In this document: positions 11,067-39,112 of the stretch, in pieces
Position numbering within the stretch: position 1 is the stretch's first letter
Layout: each line of letters opens with the position of its first letter
Sequence record: MZ501070
From: Escherichia phage GeorgBuechner
Strand: one strand, 5' to 3'
Length of the DNA stretch: 44,295 bases
The notes under the pieces: generated by a model
What the model saw: only the letters and a program-made list of their open reading frames with translations
The model's database searches: none
Told to the model about the DNA's origin: nothing
Position numbers and translations under genes: made by a program

Positions 11067-11383
11067 TTGAGGCGGCGCGACGCTTTTATGGCCCGCCGCC
11101 ACCCTCCGAAGATTTAGCCGCAAGTTTATGGGGTGCGGCCCCCGAAGATGTTTGTCCGCCTGTTGCGCTGTGGCCTGACAACGCGAAGGTAGTCGCAGTC
11201 TTCACAGATTGCTCCACGCAATGGCGCACCGGATTTGGTGGCGCATACGGCATAGACTACGGCGTGCTGGAGTGGCTATTTAAGATGCACGGTATCGAAA
11301 ACGAGCAGCGTGCGTTTAGAGATATCAAGCTAATGGAGCGAATCGCGCTTGATGAAATGGCGCAGCAGAACCCCGCACAATGA
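10704..11383 (+). CDS. Tail assembly chaperone frameshift product (gpGT-like), -1 programmed ribosomal frameshift at 11057-11063
   Basis: -1 frame is open from the slippery site A_AAA_AAC to TGA 11381-11383 (about 107 further codons, KKLIEAARRFYGPPPPSEDL...); conserved arrangement upstream of tape measure genes. Confidence 0.6.
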
Positions 11384-11384
11384 A

Positions 11385-11418
11385 GCGGGACAAAACGGGA
11401 CGTCCCGTTTTGTCCCGC
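11385..11418. repeat. 34 bp perfect palindrome GCGGGACAAAACGGGAC|GTCCCGTTTTGTCCCGC
   Basis: Read directly from sequence; an imperfect second copy lies at about 11462-11498; each is followed by a TGCATACCTAYTCA...TGCATAAACT segment. Confidence 0.8.
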
Positions 11419-11527
11419 ACCTGCAAAACTGCATACCTACTCACTCCCATTGCATAAACTCAAAACGGGACAAGCGGGACGTCCCGTTTTGTCCCGCCCT
11501 GTAAATGTGCATACCTATTCAGATTTC

Positions 11528-11702
11528 GTGCATAAACTAGGCGGGACAAAAAGCGGGACAGACAAGGGGCGGGACAAAGCGGGACAGCACCCCGTCCCCG
11601 CCAGTGCTGCCGCGGGTTTCAGCCGATCGGGACAAGCGGGACAAACCCCAGTCTTTCAGACTAGACGGGGGTCAACGGCCCCCCTCGTCTGAGACTGAAT
11701 AA
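11528..11702. repeat. Copy A of a duplicated ~175 bp non-coding element: GCGGGACA iterons plus terminal imperfect hairpin
   Basis: GCGGGACA boxes at irregular 10-16 bp spacing, then CCCAGTCTTTCAGACTAGACGGGGGTCAACGGCCCCCCTCGTCTGAGACTGAATAA; near-identical to 38938..39112. Confidence 0.8.
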
Positions 11703-16572: not shown

Positions 16573-17180
16573 CCACGTTTAAATTGTACGGCGTCTTAGG
16601 GCGTCGTTTTGGTAAAGTGCATAAGCTGGACTGCTTCACACCGGGCGAAGGAATCACCGGCTTGTGTGTGAAGTTGCCAGGGTTACAAGACTTTTTAATG
16701 TCAGCCCACCTGGACAACATGATGTTCAAAGTGCGCAAGGGCAATCACACCATGACCGGCTACGATGAGCTGGGCGAGTTCCACGGCGACCGCGTAGTGA
16801 CCATCGCGCCGGTTATGACGGGCGCAAAAAGCGGACTGGGCCAATTGCTGGCGGGTGTAGCGATCGTGGTGGCGTCGTTCTATACCGGAGGGCTTGCGAC
16901 TGCCGCTTTCGGAGCTTCAGCGGCGACCGCGGCCTCTATCGGCGCAGCGACGTTTTCGTTCGGGATGTCGATGGCGCTGGGTGGCGTTATGCAATTGTTA
17001 TCACCGCAACCGAAAGGATTGCAGACACGGCAGGACGTGGATAACAAGGCGTCGTACGCGTTCGGCGGGCCGGTGAACACAACCGCGCAAGGCACGGCAC
17101 TTGGTGTATTATGGGGCGAGCGTGAGATCGGCGGCGCTATTATTTCCGCCGGAATCGTAACCGAGGACTTGAACGAATGA
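16563..17180 (+). CDS. Tail assembly protein I-like
   Basis: 205 aa; hydrophobic Gly/Ala-rich C-terminal half; immediately upstream of the J-like gene. Confidence 0.7.
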   Translation: MAMTTFKLYGVLGRRFGKVHKLDCFTPGEGITGLCVKLPGLQDFLMSAHLDNMMFKVRKGNHTMTGYDELGEFHGDRVVTIAPVMTGAKSGLGQLLAGVAIVVASFYTGGLATAAFGASAATAASIGAATFSFGMSMALGGVMQLLSPQPKGLQTRQDVDNKASYAFGGPVNTTAQGTALGVLWGEREIGGAIISAGIVTEDLNE

Positions 17181-20100
17181 CGATTATCTACGACGTCACG
17201 GGCCATAAAGGCGGCGGCGGAAAACAGCACACCCCACAGGAGACGCCAGACAGCCTGCATTCGCTGGCTAAAATCCGCATCTTGCTCGCACTGGGCGAAG
17301 GGGAATTCGAAAGTATTACCAGCGCAAGCGAATTACGGCAGCGCGTATATCTGGACGGCACGCCGATCCAGAACGCCGATCTGTCGGAAAACTTCCCCGG
17401 CGCGCGCGTGGAGTTCCGCCCCGGCACACAACACCAGGACGTGATCCACGGATTTTCAGCGGTGGAAAGTGAACAATCTGTCGGCGTAAAACTGGAAAAC
17501 GGCACGCCGTGGGTGCGCCAGATTAATGACACCAGTCTTGACGCCGTGCGCATTCGAATCGGCATTCCGGCCCTATACACTAACGAAGATAATGGCGACC
17601 TGGTGGGCGGGCGCATCGACTATAAGATCGTTGTGTATACGGATAACGCCGACCCGCGTGAGTTCAGATTCGCCGCCGTTGGTAAAACAATGTCGCTATA
17701 TGAGCGCGACCACCGCATCGAATTACCGCCGAACGTGAATACCGGCTGGCGAGTGGAGGTGCACCGCATAACGGCAGACTCCACATCGGCGAAAGTGGTT
17801 AATGATATCCGGGTGCAATCCATCACTGAGATTATCGACGCCCGCCTGCGATACCCGCTAACCGCGCTGTTGTTTGTGGAGTTCGACGCCAAAGCGTTCC
17901 AGAACATCCCGCGCGTGTCCATCAAGTGCAAAGGCCGCAAAGTTCTAATACCGAACAACTACGACCCGATTAATCATACCTATTCCGGGGACTGGGACGG
18001 CACGTTTAAACGCGCATGGACGGATAACCCCGCGTGGCACTGGTACGATATTTGTATTACTGAGCGCTTCGGCCTCGGTCGGCGTATCAAACCGCAAATG
18101 TTAAACCGGTACGCGCTCTACCAGATTGCGCAGCGCTGCGATCAGTTGGTCAGCGACGGCAACGGTGGTCGAGAAATCCGCTTTAAGAATGATATGTACA
18201 TTCAATCACAGACGGATGCCTGGACCGTGCTTAAGGATTTAGCCGCTATCTTTGCCGGTATGACCTGGTGGGGAAATCAGATGTTGAATATCGTCAGTGA
18301 CCAGCCGGTCGCAGCGGTATCGCACACCATCACCAACGCCTCGGTCATTGATGGTCGATTCGACTACGCGTCCGGTAGCCAGAAAACTCGGTATTCCACA
18401 TTCGCGGTAGCATACGGCAACCCGAAGAACCACTATGAAGATGCCATTGCTACGGGGCAGCGTGTCGAACTGGTACGCCGCCATAAGATTAACCGTCTGG
18501 ATATAACGGCGATCGGCTGTACGCGTGAGTCAGAAGCGCAACGACGTGGGCACTGGGCGCTAATCTCCAACCAGCTTGACCAGCAAGTTAGCTTTAAGGT
18601 TGGCATGGAAGGGCTATTTTTTATTCCGGGTAGCGTAGTCGCGATCGCGGATACAAACATTTCTGGCGGCTTCGAGACACGCGGCGGTCGCCTGTTGTCG
18701 GACCCTGGCACGCGTACCGTGCTTAACACGGACAGCGAAATCACGTTCCGCCTTGGTGATAAATTCCTGGTACGCACCGATAGCGGTAATGTGGAGACCC
18801 GCGAGATCGCCAGCGTCAACGGCAACAAGGTTACGCTAAAAACCGCACTGGACGCCGACCCGATTCCGGACCAGCCGTTTTGCGTTGATGGTGACGATAT
18901 CCAGTTGCAGAAGTTCCGCATTACCGACCTGGAATATGACGACTCTACCAGCACTTTTTCAGTGCGCGGGATCGAGTACAACGATAGCAAATATGATGCC
19001 GTTGATAATGGCGCTCGCCTTGATCCGGGCATCTTTACTCAAGTGCCTGACGGCGTAATGAAGGGGCCGGAGTCCGTGACCATCACCCCGTCGCAGATTT
19101 CATCGCAAGGCCAGCTAATCACCAACGTGGATATTGTATTCCCGCCGGTGAAGGATGCCGTGGTGTATGAAATCCAGTGGCGACGTACCAGCTTGCAGAA
19201 TATGGCGGTCCAGTGGGGAAACGACTGGGTAAACATCCCCCGTACGGCTTCGAACGGCGCGCACATCCCTAACGTGTTCTCCGGTAACTACCAAGCACGC
19301 GTCCGCGCAATCGGTATGGGCGAGATTTCGTCCCCGTGGGTATCGTCCGCTATCACGCCGGTGGAAGGTCGTCTCGGCGGGCTTAACGCGCCTATCATCA
19401 CCAACGCGATTTCGGGCCTCCATCAAATTTTGTGGAAGTGGAACCATAACAACGCCGCGACGGATATTTCGTACACCGAGCTTGAGGTCCGCAAGACGGG
19501 CGAAACGGAATGGAAGTTCTTAACCAACGTCCCATATCCGGGGGCGGAGTATGCGCAAACGTCGCTGGAGTTCGGCATCTACCAGCAGTTGCGCGCCCGC
19601 GTAGCGGATAAAATCGGCAACCTGTCGGACTGGTCCGCCCCGTTTGAAGGCCAGGTGAGTGACAAAGTCGACGAATACATGAAGGGGCTTGATGACGAGT
19701 TCTTGACTTCCGAGGACGGTAAACGCTTCCAGGAAGCGATCGACACCATGCCGCAAGGCATTTATGAGTCTATGCTCACCGACGCACAGCAATTATTTAA
19801 CGCCCGCGCCGAGTACAAGGGGATTTATGCAGAAATCTCGGTCGCGTATAACGTGGCGGCAGATGCCCACCAGGCGGTAGCGCAACTGGAAACGTTGATC
19901 GGTACTCGCCTTGACGATGCTGAAGCGGCAATCCACACGTTGCAGACGGCGCAAAGCACGCATGAACAAGCGTTCGCCCAGTACCAGCAAACTGTTGCCG
20001 CTAAGTTCGGGGAGCAGGAAGCCGCCATCCAGCAGGTACAAACGGCAACGGCAGACGTAGCGGGCGCGCTGGCTGAGTACAAGACCCAGGTTGCGGCGCA

Positions 20101-20596
20101 GTTCGGCCAGCAGTCCGCCGCGATCGAGCAGAAGATGACGTCCTCGTTTAACCATGCTGGAGGCAGCGCCACATATAGCCTTAAGGCCGGCGTGACGTAT
20201 AACGGGACTTACTATGACGCTGGTATGCAGCTTTCAGTTGTGACGTCTGGCAGCGCGGTTAAATCGCGTATCGCGTTCAAAGCCGACCAGTTCTACATCA
20301 TGCACCCATCTAATGGGTCGCTTTCGTCCGCGTTTATTGTTGACGGCGGGCAGGTGTATATTGACACGGCACGCATCAAGAATGCGTCCATCAACTTCGC
20401 GCAGATCACAGACACGCTGCAATCGAATAACTACGACGGCAGCACGCGCGGATGGCGCTTAGGTAAGGATGGAACGTTTATCAACCTGGGGACCGGAAGC
20501 GGTGGTGGTACAAAGCAGACCAACACCAACTACAGCGTTAAAGACGCGAACGGTGTTTTACGCGTGCAAATTGGCGAGCTTACTGGTCGCTGGTAG
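17177..20596 (+). CDS. Tail tip / host specificity protein J-like (central tail fibre)
   Basis: 1139 aa ORF last in the M-L-K-I-J block; size and position match lambda J-type proteins. Confidence 0.85.
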   Translation: MTIIYDVTGHKGGGGKQHTPQETPDSLHSLAKIRILLALGEGEFESITSASELRQRVYLDGTPIQNADLSENFPGARVEFRPGTQHQDVIHGFSAVESEQSVGVKLENGTPWVRQINDTSLDAVRIRIGIPALYTNEDNGDLVGGRIDYKIVVYTDNADPREFRFAAVGKTMSLYERDHRIELPPNVNTGWRVEVHRITADSTSAKVVNDIRVQSITEIIDARLRYPLTALLFVEFDAKAFQNIPRVSIKCKGRKVLIPNNYDPINHTYSGDWDGTFKRAWTDNPAWHWYDICITERFGLGRRIKPQMLNRYALYQIAQRCDQLVSDGNGGREIRFKNDMYIQSQTDAWTVLKDLAAIFAGMTWWGNQMLNIVSDQPVAAVSHTITNASVIDGRFDYASGSQKTRYSTFAVAYGNPKNHYEDAIATGQRVELVRRHKINRLDITAIGCTRESEAQRRGHWALISNQLDQQVSFKVGMEGLFFIPGSVVAIADTNISGGFETRGGRLLSDPGTRTVLNTDSEITFRLGDKFLVRTDSGNVETREIASVNGNKVTLKTALDADPIPDQPFCVDGDDIQLQKFRITDLEYDDSTSTFSVRGIEYNDSKYDAVDNGARLDPGIFTQVPDGVMKGPESVTITPSQISSQGQLITNVDIVFPPVKDAVVYEIQWRRTSLQNMAVQWGNDWVNIPRTASNGAHIPNVFSGNYQARVRAIGMGEISSPWVSSAITPVEGRLGGLNAPIITNAISGLHQILWKWNHNNAATDISYTELEVRKTGETEWKFLTNVPYPGAEYAQTSLEFGIYQQLRARVADKIGNLSDWSAPFEGQVSDKVDEYMKGLDDEFLTSEDGKRFQEAIDTMPQGIYESMLTDAQQLFNARAEYKGIYAEISVAYNVAADAHQAVAQLETLIGTRLDDAEAAIHTLQTAQSTHEQAFAQYQQTVAAKFGEQEAAIQQVQTATADVAGALAEYKTQVAAQFGQQSAAIEQKMTSSFNHAGGSATYSLKAGVTYNGTYYDAGMQLSVVTSGSAVKSRIAFKADQFYIMHPSNGSLSSAFIVDGGQVYIDTARIKNASINFAQITDTLQSNNYDGSTRGWRLGKDGTFINLGTGSGGGTKQTNTNYSVKDANGVLRVQIGELTGRW

Positions 20597-21878: not shown

Positions 21879-21906
21879 GTATTACACCGCTCAATCAAGA
21901 ATGCAA
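21879..21906 (-). promoter_or_regulatory. Candidate sigma70-type promoter for the lipoprotein gene
   Basis: Minus strand reads TTGCAT - 16 nt - TAATAC about 30 nt upstream of the ATG; the -35 overlaps an ATTGGTTGCA motif. Confidence 0.35.
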
Positions 21907-21911
21907 CCAAT
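21902..21911. promoter_or_regulatory. TGCAACCAAT motif immediately upstream of the tail fibre SD
   Basis: aTGCAACCAATttACGAGGAtttagctATG; motif 17 nt from the fibre start codon. Confidence 0.5.
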
Positions 21912-21927
21912 TTACGAGGATTTAGCT

Positions 21928-23730
21928 ATGGCAGCGGGTACGCTCTCCGTAACGAACAATAGCAAGGCGGTAGTAGGGGTTGGCACAACGTTTACCGCGT
22001 TCAAGGCTGGCGACTTCTTATCACTGGTGGTGGGGCAAGTGCCTTATACAGTGGCGATCGCGTCCATTGAAAGCGCAACCGCTCTCACGCTAGTGTTGCC
22101 GTTCGATGGCCCTACGGCAACCGGACTTGCCTGGGATGGTATTAATCGCGATACCATGTCACTGGCAACGATGGGCGTTACCGTACAGGCGCAAAAAGCA
22201 TTGCGCTTGATGATTGCAGATGAAAACAACTGGCGTGCAATCTTCGGCGACGCTGAAGAAATCACAGTGACGTTACCTAACGGGCAAGTCATGCAGGGTA
22301 TGTCATGGGGATACCTGTCGGAATTGCTTAAGAACGTAGATCCGGTTGAGATGCGCGACCTCGCAGCGCAAGCCGAAGCATCGAAATCGGCAGCGCAAGG
22401 ATTTCGTAATGAGGCCGAAGGCTTCAAGAACGATACCAATACAATCAAGACGCAGACCAACCAGATTAAGGCGGATACGCAGGCTATCCACGACGCCACC
22501 AATACCATCAAGACGCAGACCAACCAGATTAAGACGGATACGCAGGCCATCAAAGACCAGACGAACCAGATCAAGACTGACACTGGCGTTATGAGGGACG
22601 AGGCCAACACCGCGAAGGCGGACGCGCAAGCTGCCAGCACTGCCGCACAGGAATTCCGCGACCAGGCAGAGGAGTGGGCGCAAAGCGTTAACGCGGATAA
22701 CCTGCTAACCAAATCCGGCAACCTGGCAGGACTTGCGGATAAAACTGAGTCGTGGGCAAACCTTATGCCTGCAGGCCCGCTACGAGTCGGCGGTGACCCC
22801 AATGCGGATCTGGATGCGGCAACTAAGCGTTGGACGTTGGGTTTATTAGACGCAGGCACGGCGAATACGTCGTGGTCGGTAATCAACGGCGACGCCACTA
22901 AACCGCCAGCGGGCACTACGGCAGACGGCGGAAGCATTATATCTGAATATCGTGTAGGTACTTCTGTACATTCGGAAGCAAAGCTGCGCGTCCGTGCGAC
23001 TATCGGCGGTGAGACTTACGCCCGCTTGGCGATCACCAACCTGGAGACGGCGCAGAGTTCGGGCATCGACTTTAACACCAAAGGCGAGATGACCTTGCCG
23101 GGCAAGTTTACGGTGAACAGTCCAGGGTCAGATGTCGTCGGCAGCTTGTCCTTAAGCCGCGGGTCTTACCTGCAATTTGCATTCGAACCGTACTACACCG
23201 TAGCCGAAACCGTGCCGAACGACGTTGTAGGCGGTAGGACGTTCTTCGAACCGGCACTAGTCAAGAGCGGCACTCGATATTTTCGCCTGTTTATGCGACG
23301 TAAGGATGGGAACCGTACCGGCGAAATTATGCTTAACTTCCCGACTACCGTATCGGGGACTATCGCGCTGCAAGGCACATCCGGCCGCGAGTATAAGAAA
23401 GATATTGCCGATGCGGACGCAAGCGAAGCTATGGACCGCATTAACAGCCAGCGCCTTGTTAACTTCGTGTATAAGGATGATGAGCAGGCCCGCCAGCGCT
23501 TCGGTATTATCGCCGAAGAAGCGGAGTTAATTGCGCCGCAGTACGTTAAACACCACGAGTTCCCGATCGAGGATATTCTCGACGAAGACGGCAACAAGAT
23601 CGGGGAGAAGATGACGGACCGCCCATCCATCGACGTTAACCCGATCGTAATGGACTTGATGGGATGTGTTCAATATCTCAATAAGCAGGTGGAGGATTTG
23701 AAGGCCGAGATCGCGGCGTTGAAGAAATAA
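21928..23730 (+). CDS. Tail fibre protein with C-terminal S74-type intramolecular chaperone domain
   Basis: 600 aa from ATG 21928 (track ORF starts at 21901 inside the motif); internal 63 bp tandem repeat encoding NTIKTQTNQIK...; C-terminal GTSGREYKKDIADADASEAMDRINSQRLVNFVYKDD resembles fibre chaperone domains. Confidence 0.8.
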   Translation: MAAGTLSVTNNSKAVVGVGTTFTAFKAGDFLSLVVGQVPYTVAIASIESATALTLVLPFDGPTATGLAWDGINRDTMSLATMGVTVQAQKALRLMIADENNWRAIFGDAEEITVTLPNGQVMQGMSWGYLSELLKNVDPVEMRDLAAQAEASKSAAQGFRNEAEGFKNDTNTIKTQTNQIKADTQAIHDATNTIKTQTNQIKTDTQAIKDQTNQIKTDTGVMRDEANTAKADAQAASTAAQEFRDQAEEWAQSVNADNLLTKSGNLAGLADKTESWANLMPAGPLRVGGDPNADLDAATKRWTLGLLDAGTANTSWSVINGDATKPPAGTTADGGSIISEYRVGTSVHSEAKLRVRATIGGETYARLAITNLETAQSSGIDFNTKGEMTLPGKFTVNSPGSDVVGSLSLSRGSYLQFAFEPYYTVAETVPNDVVGGRTFFEPALVKSGTRYFRLFMRRKDGNRTGEIMLNFPTTVSGTIALQGTSGREYKKDIADADASEAMDRINSQRLVNFVYKDDEQARQRFGIIAEEAELIAPQYVKHHEFPIEDILDEDGNKIGEKMTDRPSIDVNPIVMDLMGCVQYLNKQVEDLKAEIAALKK

Positions 23731-23736
23731 ATAGAA

Positions 23737-23758
23737 GGGGCCATGCGGCCCCTTTTTC
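23737..23758. terminator. Bidirectional terminator between fibre gene and minus-strand early cluster
   Basis: GGGGCC-atgc-GGCCCC followed by TTTTT. Confidence 0.7.
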
Positions 23759-35263: not shown

Positions 35264-35782
35264 TTAATCTTCCAGTTCGAAATAGGTTTCGACGATTTCT
35301 TTTAGCTCTGTGTGGAAGTCTTCGACGTCGTCATCTTCCAGCTTGGCGATTGATTTGATCTCGAACGATTCCAGCAGGTCGTCGAATTCGTCGTTCGCAT
35401 CGTCGTCATCACCACCGGCGATAATCGCGGCATACTGTTTGATTTCGTCGCGCATCTCCGCCAGCGGATCGGCATCTTTCTTACCTTTGCCTTTCGCCGG
35501 TGCTTTTTTGGCCTTAGCCGGTTTTTCGTCTTCGGCGTCTTCGTCGTCGTCATCTTCTACGACTTCTTTTTTGGCCTTACCCTTCGCCGGTGCTTTTTTA
35601 GCTTTAGCCGGTTTTTCGTCTTCGGCGTCATCGTCGCCATCTTCGACAACTTCTTTTTTGGCCTTAGACGGCTTCTTGTCTTCCTGCTTACCAACGGCAG
35701 CGCCAACGGTTTCATAATGCTTTGCAATGGTTTCCAGTGCTACTACGCCGCGAGTGATCAGGTTTACGATTTGCTCAAACAT
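35264..35782 (-). CDS. Acidic/lysine-rich repeat protein, first gene of the leftward early operon
   Basis: 172 aa from ATG 35780-35782 (MFEQIVNL...) with SD GGAG; two ~29 aa tandem repeats KKEVVEDxDDDAEDEKPAKAKKAPAKGK; the longer track ORF is rejected as a 5' leader. Confidence 0.55.
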   Translation of the reverse strand: MFEQIVNLITRGVVALETIAKHYETVGAAVGKQEDKKPSKAKKEVVEDGDDDAEDEKPAKAKKAPAKGKAKKEVVEDDDDEDAEDEKPAKAKKAPAKGKGKKDADPLAEMRDEIKQYAAIIAGGDDDDANDEFDDLLESFEIKSIAKLEDDDVEDFHTELKEIVETYFELED

Positions 35783-35978
35783 GGTATATCTCCGATTGGT
35801 TAAGTTTAGGTGTCGGCAGTTAACTTCGTCGGTGGCCTTAACATATTGCCAGGTTACGCGTTCTCCCGTTCGGGTAGTGGACCTGGTTATATAATCACGG
35901 TTGGGAATCCTGACACTTCGATCCGGCCCCTGCGTTGCCCCTCTCCAGTTTGCGTCCTGCATCCTGTCGACGGGGTGA

Positions 35979-38937: not shown

Positions 38938-39112
38938 GTGCATAAAGTAAGCGGGACAAAAAGCGGGACAAACAAGGGGCGGGACAAAGCGGGACAGCAC
39001 CCCCGTCCCGCCCCGGATGGCGCGGCTTCCAGAGGAGCGGGACAGGCGGGACAAACCCCAGTCTTTCAGACTAGACGGGGGTCAATGGCCCCCCTCGTCT
39101 GAGACTGAATAA
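38938..39112. repeat. Copy B of the duplicated ~175 bp GCGGGACA-iteron plus hairpin element
   Basis: Near-identical to 11528..11702 with a diverged central ~40 bp; ends in the same imperfect hairpin. Confidence 0.8.

Follow-up and report, generated by a model that had tools for sequence, protein, structure and literature searches.

The lateral tail fibre gene of Dhillonvirus was named in the BASEL studies, in which its product was proposed to bind O-antigen, so that the phage gets past this barrier and its central fibre can then contact a porin (PMC8594841; PMC11990801). Only the far 5' end of the gene is conserved, with similarity collapsing thereafter (PMC8594841), and Gp29 of RuthEpting (Bas85) consists of an elongated N-terminal coiled coil followed by a T5-like tip with an intramolecular chaperone (IMC) domain (PMC11990801). 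In phage DT57C, cryo-electron microscopy shows the lateral fibre protein LtfA emerging from the tail as a coiled coil of three helices (PMC10713586). Here we analysed the lateral tail fibre gene of Escherichia phage GeorgBuechner in sequence record MZ501070, a stretch of 44,295 nucleotides that is called the window throughout, and in particular a 63-bp tandem repeat in the part of the gene that encodes the fibre stalk. We consider it very probable that in this repeat three heptads (21 residues) of a coiled-coil stalk, presumably trimeric, have been duplicated in frame and in register, and that the stalk would serve as a length-adjustable spacer. Dhillonvirus fibres composed of an anchor, a coiled coil, a T5-like tip and a chaperone have been described before, and nothing in this fibre is categorically new. 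Variation in heptad number is a familiar property of coiled-coil fibres; no mention of it was found in the Dhillonvirus literature searched.

The fibre of the window resembles the other Dhillonvirus lateral fibres, such as RuthEpting Gp29, Oekolampad bas18_0027 and Envy ANY29649, in its genome position, in its anchor domain (92-97% identity) and in its architecture, and its stalk is that of Envy apart from a few substitutions. It differs from them as a new combination of parts, in which both stalk and tip are Envy-like but the middle domain of about 205 aa that Envy carries is missing (600 versus 805 aa). The comparison with DT57C LtfA (PDB 8hqz_d), whose role is facultative O-antigen binding, and with T5 pb1 divides along the fibre. 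The tip and chaperone of the window fibre, that is, its C-terminal 290 residues or so including the S74 domain, align with LtfA residues 790-1073 (E 3.8e-88), and the neck is also homologous. By contrast, LtfA is held by a beta-strand 'lasso' in the LtfC collar, whereas the fibre of the window has a beta-rich domain of 137 residues at this end; the stalk has no detectable sequence homology to LtfA, and genes for LtfB and LtfC were not seen beside that of the fibre.

Results

The 63-bp repeat and its heptad register

An earlier reading of the sequence without database searches (the sequence-only reading) had described two consecutive 63-bp units at roughly 90% identity, and two such adjacent units are indeed present. 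In the register of that reading, 22438-22500 and 22501-22563 share 54 of 63 bases (85.7%), and the units translate exactly as the peptides that it had quoted, NTIKTQTNQIKADTQAIHDAT and NTIKTQTNQIKTDTQAIKDQT, respectively. When the register was slid, the best match was 22430-22492 against 22493-22555 (56/63, 88.9%), and 55/63 bases are identical in the heptad register used in Table 1; at 86-89%, the earlier figure was slightly generous but fair. Tandem Repeats Finder located the array at 22444-22577 (period 63, 2.1 copies, 83% matches, score 184) and, nested within it, a 21-nt period at 22435-22523. No comparable period-63 match was found elsewhere in the 44,295 bases of the window, where the top score was 35/63, and the maximum in 50 shuffled controls was 33/63. 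The binomial probability of an identity of at least 54/63 is about 9e-24, and a chance origin of the match is excluded.

What the sequence-only reading had missed is that the underlying period is 21 nt, one heptad, and that the 63-bp unit corresponds to three heptads of an alpha-helical coiled coil. This also alters the meaning of the partial third unit that it had proposed at 22564-22580. The repeat does continue there, but as one further heptad of the 21-nt array, which resembles the second heptad of the unit (15/17 identical bases, versus 11/17 for the first), and not as a new 63-bp unit.

Between DPVEM (residue 138) and WAQS (about residue 253), 16 heptads follow each other without interruption. 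An AlphaFold2 (AF2) monomer prediction, for which an alignment of 35 sequences was the input, gave one continuous helix over residues 139-253 with a predicted local distance difference test score (pLDDT) of 93-98, preceded by a beta-rich N-terminal domain and followed by a poorly predicted neck; the repeat is thus placed in the shaft, as had been claimed. In the register of the window, Ala or Thr occupies position 'a' and Ile, Phe, Leu, Tyr or Ala position 'd'. The same pattern runs through the 46 distinct stalks described below, with Ala or Thr at 'a' in 583 of 587 cases and mostly I, A, F, L, S or Y at 'd'. The Lys residues at 'e' and the Asp or Gln residues at 'g' would be available for salt bridges between helices. 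By its a/d pattern and predicted helix, the stalk is an alpha-helical coiled coil, and it is presumably trimeric, by analogy with the family of S74-chaperone fibres and with the three-helix bundle of DT57C LtfA. A beta-structured or collagen-like repeat was rejected, as there is no Gly-X-Y pattern, no Pro and few Gly in the heptads and the helix is confidently predicted.

With the rise of 0.148 nm per residue of a helix, a heptad adds about 1 nm and a 63-bp unit about 3.1 nm to a stalk of about 17 nm, and a change of fibre length with copy number would follow from this geometry. A protein search with the stalk only (77 aa) against a collection of 5.8 billion proteins returned no match at E <= 0.001, because a low-complexity coil is too short to reach significance in a database of that size.

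Heptad number among related fibres

To compare stalk lengths, stalks were cut between two conserved anchors in 68 protein clusters, 31 IMG/VR and GenBank loci and the window itself. The 46 distinct stalks obtained have 4 (five sequences), 10 (one), 12 (one), 13 (nine), 14 (two), 15 (two) or 16 heptads (26 sequences), and every one of them is an exact multiple of 7 residues long. Sixteen heptads, as in the window, is both the commonest and the longest state observed; further relatives have no stalk, and their anchor domain joins the neck directly.

Pairwise comparisons resolve these differences into single events of 42, 63, 126 or 252 bp, always in heptad register. SECphi18 and HH3 have one unit where the window has two, and the alignment of the window with HH3 (86.6% identity over the first 900 nt) contains one gap of 63 bp in the stalk, at unit 1. 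One 42-bp duplication separates an IMG/VR locus (L005) from Oekolampad at 98.0% identity over the full gene. Envy and Opt212, with 96.1% identity over the first 900 nt, differ by one 252-bp gap, the ends of which fall in the in-register repeats AQGFR(N/D)EAE and AQ(E/G)FRDQAE; the fibres of the Opt212, KS_S9 and PaulFeyerabend type are joined exactly at this long-range direct repeat, which leaves them with 4-heptad stalks. The closest series comes from three metagenome-assembled Dhillonvirus genomes (ENA ERZ27318451, ERZ27318353 and ERZ27318357), whose fibre genes are 99.4-99.6% identical and differ only by 0, +63 and +126 bp in the array. Copy number is therefore not invariant among relatives. 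No obvious link of heptad number to the type of distal tip or to total length was seen in this set, 4-heptad fibres measuring 424-721 aa and 16-heptad fibres 508-805 aa.

Four Dhillonvirus-like contigs of IMG/VR (L008, L010, L011 and L014) carry an unrelated, Ala-rich stalk of tandemly repeated TAKxxAx heptads, with exactly 12 or 13 heptads. Classes of stalk length thus recur in the Ala-rich and the window-type stalks despite their unrelated sequences.

Age and stability of the two units

The two units were compared in seven canonical 16-heptad genomes. Orthologous units of different genomes share on average 56.7 of 63 bases, the two units within a genome 52.1 and non-orthologous units of different genomes 51.3; moreover, unit 1 keeps an ending in IHDA and unit 2 an ending in IKDQ across lineages. 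Because orthologous units are closer than paralogous ones and the endings are kept, the duplication predates the divergence of these phages and has not been homogenized. On this sequence comparison, the two units in the lineage of the window are old, stably inherited paralogues. The length of the array may also be constrained rather than freely variable, as 16 heptads is the commonest and largest number. Both points weigh against the stalk as a freely adjustable spacer, as does the source of some of the length variants, which come from short-read metagenome assemblies in which tandem repeats can be mis-assembled. Against mis-assembly, however, the inserted units differ in sequence, and the isolates SECphi18, HH3, Oekolampad, Opt212 and KS_S9 show indels of the same kind.

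The same data bear on whether the array is an actively hypervariable contingency locus, in which 63-bp units would slip often within one lysate and a mixture of fibre lengths would broaden host range. Such a locus could account for copy numbers that differ among genes of 99.4-99.6% identity and between genes of 98% identity, and the long identical stretches in the units could support slippage. Nevertheless, the IHDA and IKDQ signatures are independent of lineage in at least seven canonical genomes, the closeness of orthologues relative to paralogues points to little concerted evolution or turnover, exactly 16 heptads are found in 26 of the 46 distinct stalks, and units that are only about 87% identical would be poor substrates for slippage. 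The array also differs from a phase-variable simple-sequence locus, where a change in copy number switches expression through the reading frame or the promoter spacing, its unit being 63 bp (21 codons) long and all its variants remaining in frame and in heptad register. We therefore regard a contingency locus as improbable. Of the hotspot for copy-number change that the sequence-only reading had envisaged, the variation itself stands, as seen in SECphi18, HH3 and the series of 0, +63 and +126 bp, whereas the preponderance of 16-heptad stalks and the age of the paralogues speak for change that is occasional. Taken together, the comparisons argue for occasional, recombinational and perhaps length-constrained change and not for a rapidly slipping locus.

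Duplication at the DNA level

Two units could also be alike without any duplication event, if selection for a common coiled-coil heptad motif had made them so. Similar heptads do make up the entire stalk, and in its 336-nt region self-identity is raised to 0.44 at a lag of 21 from about 0.3 at non-heptad lags. The codons tell otherwise. Units 1 and 2 agree at 18 of 21 residues, and at 16 of these 18 the same codon is used, where the codon usage of the fibre gene would lead one to expect 8.3 (simulated P about 1e-4). Because the shared residues are so often encoded identically, the similarity reflects DNA-level duplication and not only convergence of the protein, and because self-identity rises to 0.51 at lag 63, compared with 0.44 at each of lags 21 and 42, the units can be read as copies at the DNA level. 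Exact 63-bp blocks, in addition, distinguish relatives. Convergence without duplication is thus rejected on codon identity and seems very unlikely; judged from the sequence, units 1 and 2 arose by a true duplication of DNA.

Least credible of all is that the repeat reflects targeted diversification, for instance by a diversity-generating retroelement with its template and variable repeats, or coding on the opposite strand. Such retroelements do target phage tail fibre genes, and long antisense open reading frames (ORFs) do overlap the region (22044..22937, 297 aa; 22303..22683, 126 aa). The two units, however, directly adjoin each other within the stalk and not in the C-terminal ligand-binding domain, and their 8 mismatches are not confined to adenines in either copy (A/C, G/A, T/C, CAC/AAA and GCC/CAG). 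No reverse transcriptase was seen in the annotations of the relatives that were inspected (no scan for one was made in the window itself), and a scan of the whole window gave no Rfam family match. Substitutions relative to relatives fall mainly in the third codon position of the plus frame (294/200/710 by codon position in the stalk), which marks the fibre frame as the one under selection. Mismatch pattern and adjacency led us to reject a retroelement target, and codon-position bias antisense coding. In the anchor domain, the corresponding counts in the fibre frame are 236/73/1315.

Organization of the fibre gene and its neighbourhood

The features of the gene are collected in Table 1. That it is a tail fibre gene, as the sequence-only reading had it, agrees with a match to PHROG 1980 ('tail fiber protein', E 1.5e-131) and with a C-terminal Pfam domain, PF13884 (Peptidase_S74), which scores 37.6 bits, above its cut-off of 22, and covers residues 495-550 of the 609-aa ORF. 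This ORF, in the program-made list, runs on the plus strand from an ATG at 21901 to 23730. The ATG at 21928 is the more likely start, which would give a 600-aa protein beginning with MAAGT, because GAGGA stands 7 nt upstream of it and MAAGT is the annotated start in most relatives; the annotation is inconsistent, with PEC9 and Henu5_1 using the longer form. No Shine-Dalgarno sequence precedes the ATG at 21901, and a start there overlaps the upstream end of the divergent cor ORF.

Table 1. Coordinates of the features of the fibre gene in the window
Feature	Coordinates	Strand	Basis or remark
Lateral tail fibre gene, 600 aa	21928..23730	+	ORF list; PHROG 1980; Pfam PF13884
N-terminal virion-anchor domain (aa 1-137), beta-rich	21928..22338	+	92-97% identity in 15 IMG/VR loci
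Predicted coiled-coil stalk, residues 139-253, 16 heptads, about 17 nm	22342..22686	+	AF2 helix, heptad register
Long-range direct repeat, proximal copy (AQGFRNEAE)	22393..22419	+	252 nt upstream of its partner
Repeat unit 1	22435..22497	+	TNTIKTQ TNQIKAD TQAIHDA; absent in HH3 as a single 63-bp gap here
Repeat unit 2	22498..22560	+	TNTIKTQ TNQIKTD TQAIKDQ
Two trailing Thr/Ile-type heptads	22561..22602	+	TNQIKTD TGVMRDE
Long-range direct repeat, distal copy (AQEFRDQAE)	22645..22671	+	Same joins
Neck/linker after the stalk (NADNLLTKSGNLAGLADK...DAATKRW)	22687..22860	+	Homologous to DT57C LtfA residues 479-587, domain E 8.7e-9; AF2 confidence low
Distal fibre tip, presumed glycan-binding domain	22861..23379	+	Aligned with DT57C LtfA; PHROG 6921
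C-terminal intramolecular chaperone (Peptidase S74), candidate Ser485/Lys490 dyad (SGREYK)	23380..23727	+	PF13884
G+C-rich hairpin with T run on both strands, bidirectional terminator after the fibre gene	23733..23756	.	Sequence

Upstream of the fibre gene lie a gene for a lambda-J-like tip protein (17177..20596), genes for two small proteins (phrog_557 and phrog_425) and, on the opposite strand, a gene for a Cor-like lipoprotein. The resulting order of gpJ, phrog_557, phrog_425, cor and fibre agrees with that in Envy, Opt212, JLBYU60 and others, and the fibre has the two features by which Dhillonvirus lateral fibres are recognized, a homologous N-terminal anchor domain and a position after gpJ, the receptor-binding-protein genes and cor. 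Terminators are annotated in WFI and PTXU06 at the same place as the hairpin in Table 1. The fibre gene was matched by 141 phage records, and the gene together with the first 20 kb of the window by about 140-157 Dhillonvirus genomes. The window is accordingly that of a Dhillonvirus-like siphophage of E. coli. The closest record over these 20 kb is slur05 (93.6% identity); over the fibre gene, Envy, Sloth and JLBYU37 are about 95% identical, and none of the records searched matches it from end to end at more than 95% identity.

The anchor domain is conserved across Dhillonvirus and many prophage fibres, with a WGYL motif at a fixed position and no indels at all in the relatives of the stalk comparison, and AF2 predicts strands in it (pLDDT about 76-85). 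Residues 1-72 gave a weak sequence match to chain 23gd_B, a 'distal tail protein gp20' (E 3.7e-4); when residues 1-300 of the AF2 model were compared with the PDB by Foldseek, no match was found at E <= 0.001. At 33-50% identity, the anchor domain was also seen in hundreds of other viral and prophage contigs of IMG/VR (384 confirmed stretches; L043-L110), where it precedes no stalk, short stalks or long stalks and many different tips.

Towards the other end, the SGREYK motif is matched by SGIEYK in DT57C LtfA and is a candidate dyad by sequence. Its Ser485 and Lys490 would form the Ser/Lys catalytic dyad of this family, in which, as in K1F and T5, the two residues lie five apart at the cleavage site.

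The 805-aa fibres of Envy, Sloth and JLBYU37 correspond to the fibre of the window with the middle domain of about 205 aa inserted between DATTKRW and ANTSWSVINGDATK (Envy locus L001, 3027-5444, against window positions 21928-23730). Relative to the Envy-type fibre, the allele of the window seems to have lost the domain by a precise deletion or to be recombinant. A more drastic rearrangement was seen in Escherichia phage Teewinot, in whose tail fibre (P0018, 246 aa) the anchor and about four heptads are fused into the middle of the S74 chaperone and the distal tip is deleted; Teewinot looks like a natural mutant without a functional lateral fibre.

Other repeats in the window

Elsewhere in the window, an intergenic array at 11383-11599 consists of GCGGGACA(A) motifs, with two copies of the palindrome AAAACGGGACGTCCCGTTTT 79 bp apart, and a second array, of AAGCGGGACAAA, lies at 38949-38996. 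Both arrays may be repeated regulatory or binding sites. A tandem duplication of 90 bp (30 aa; about 90% identity) at 35493-35666 falls within a minus-strand ORF, 35264..35962, whose product of 232 aa is acidic, Lys-rich and of low complexity and contains the peptide KKEVVEDxDDDAEDEKPAKAKKAPAKGK twice.

Discussion

The stalk would join a conserved N-terminal virion-anchor domain to an exchangeable T5/DT57C-like tip with a presumably self-cleaving S74 chaperone. As all heptads share a common core pattern and similar codons, any two of them could pair out of alignment during replication or recombination. Unequal homologous recombination or replication slippage, either of which we infer, would then yield a stalk that is still in frame and in register, a functional and continuous coil that is longer or shorter by whole heptads. 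Misaligned pairing of heptads would therefore explain why only indels of 21xN bp occur. The array could in this way be a spacer whose length can be adjusted and, at the same time, a zone permissive for crossovers that swap tips. A role of the stalk as the junction for tip exchange fits the mosaic boundaries of the gene, in which many relatives cease to be homologous in nucleotide sequence at gene positions 737-767, in the last stalk heptads.

What a change in stalk length would do for the phage is likewise a matter of deduction. An effect on adsorption or host range would be plausible, and specificity most plausibly resides mainly in the T5/DT57C-like tip, the distal module whose exchange takes place downstream of the stalk. 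It is doubtful, but worth considering, that stalk length is a selected, quantised trait and not a neutral spacer, as heptad counts cluster at 16 (the maximum), 13 and 4 even in unrelated stalks such as the 13-heptad TAKxxA type. If this were true, discrete lengths could adjust how far the tip of the lateral fibre reaches, or its rotational phase, to the thickness of O-antigen or capsule or to the central fibre, and in-register 63-bp recombination would be the way in which the phage retunes adsorption and host range.

Coiled coils that resemble this stalk in one respect or another are known outside the lateral fibres of siphophages. The proximal shaft of T7 gp17 is a coiled coil, which like the stalk of the window directly follows an N-terminal adaptor domain. 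In a PDB sequence search, the two align over about 100 residues (E 4e-4 to 2.5e-3), and FRNEAEGFKNDT, encoded at 22393-22434, is nearly the same as FRNQAEGFKNES at residues 171-190 or so of gp17. T7 is a podovirus, however, with another adaptor and tip, and its shaft has neither the Thr/Ile heptads of the TNQIKTD type nor the 63-bp duplication. The similarity suggests shared ancestry or an exchange of stalk modules between siphophage and podophage.

A likeness of another order exists to Braun's lipoprotein Lpp, a trimeric coiled coil with weak in-register similarity to the stalk (an alignment of QTNQIKTDTQAIKDQTNQIKTDTGVMRDEANTAKADAQAAST at E about 0.1, and E about 0.1-0.5 overall). Lpp engineered to have 14 or 21 additional residues, two or three heptads, acts as a functional, longer spacer, and the step size is the same as in the stalk of the window. 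Lpp is nonetheless a bacterial envelope protein and not a part of a virion, and its likeness to the stalk is one of coiled-coil composition and not evidence of common descent. The fibritin (gpwac) of T4 and related phages keeps its N- and C-terminal domains but differs in the length and segment number of its trimeric coiled coil. Fibritin, a segmented coiled coil, has no sequence relationship to the stalk, and its coil is broken by loops, in contrast to the single uninterrupted register of the window.

In summary, the 63-bp repeat of the GeorgBuechner fibre gene is very probably a three-heptad duplication in a coiled-coil stalk. Its value is comparative and modest: the stalk of these fibres changes in length by whole heptads only, and near-identical natural phages exist with 0, 1 or 2 extra 63-bp units. 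These form a natural allelic series and offer a safe engineering site for studying how the reach of a fibre affects adsorption through O-antigen, and the stalk marks the point at which one distal tip can be exchanged for another while the fibre stays intact.

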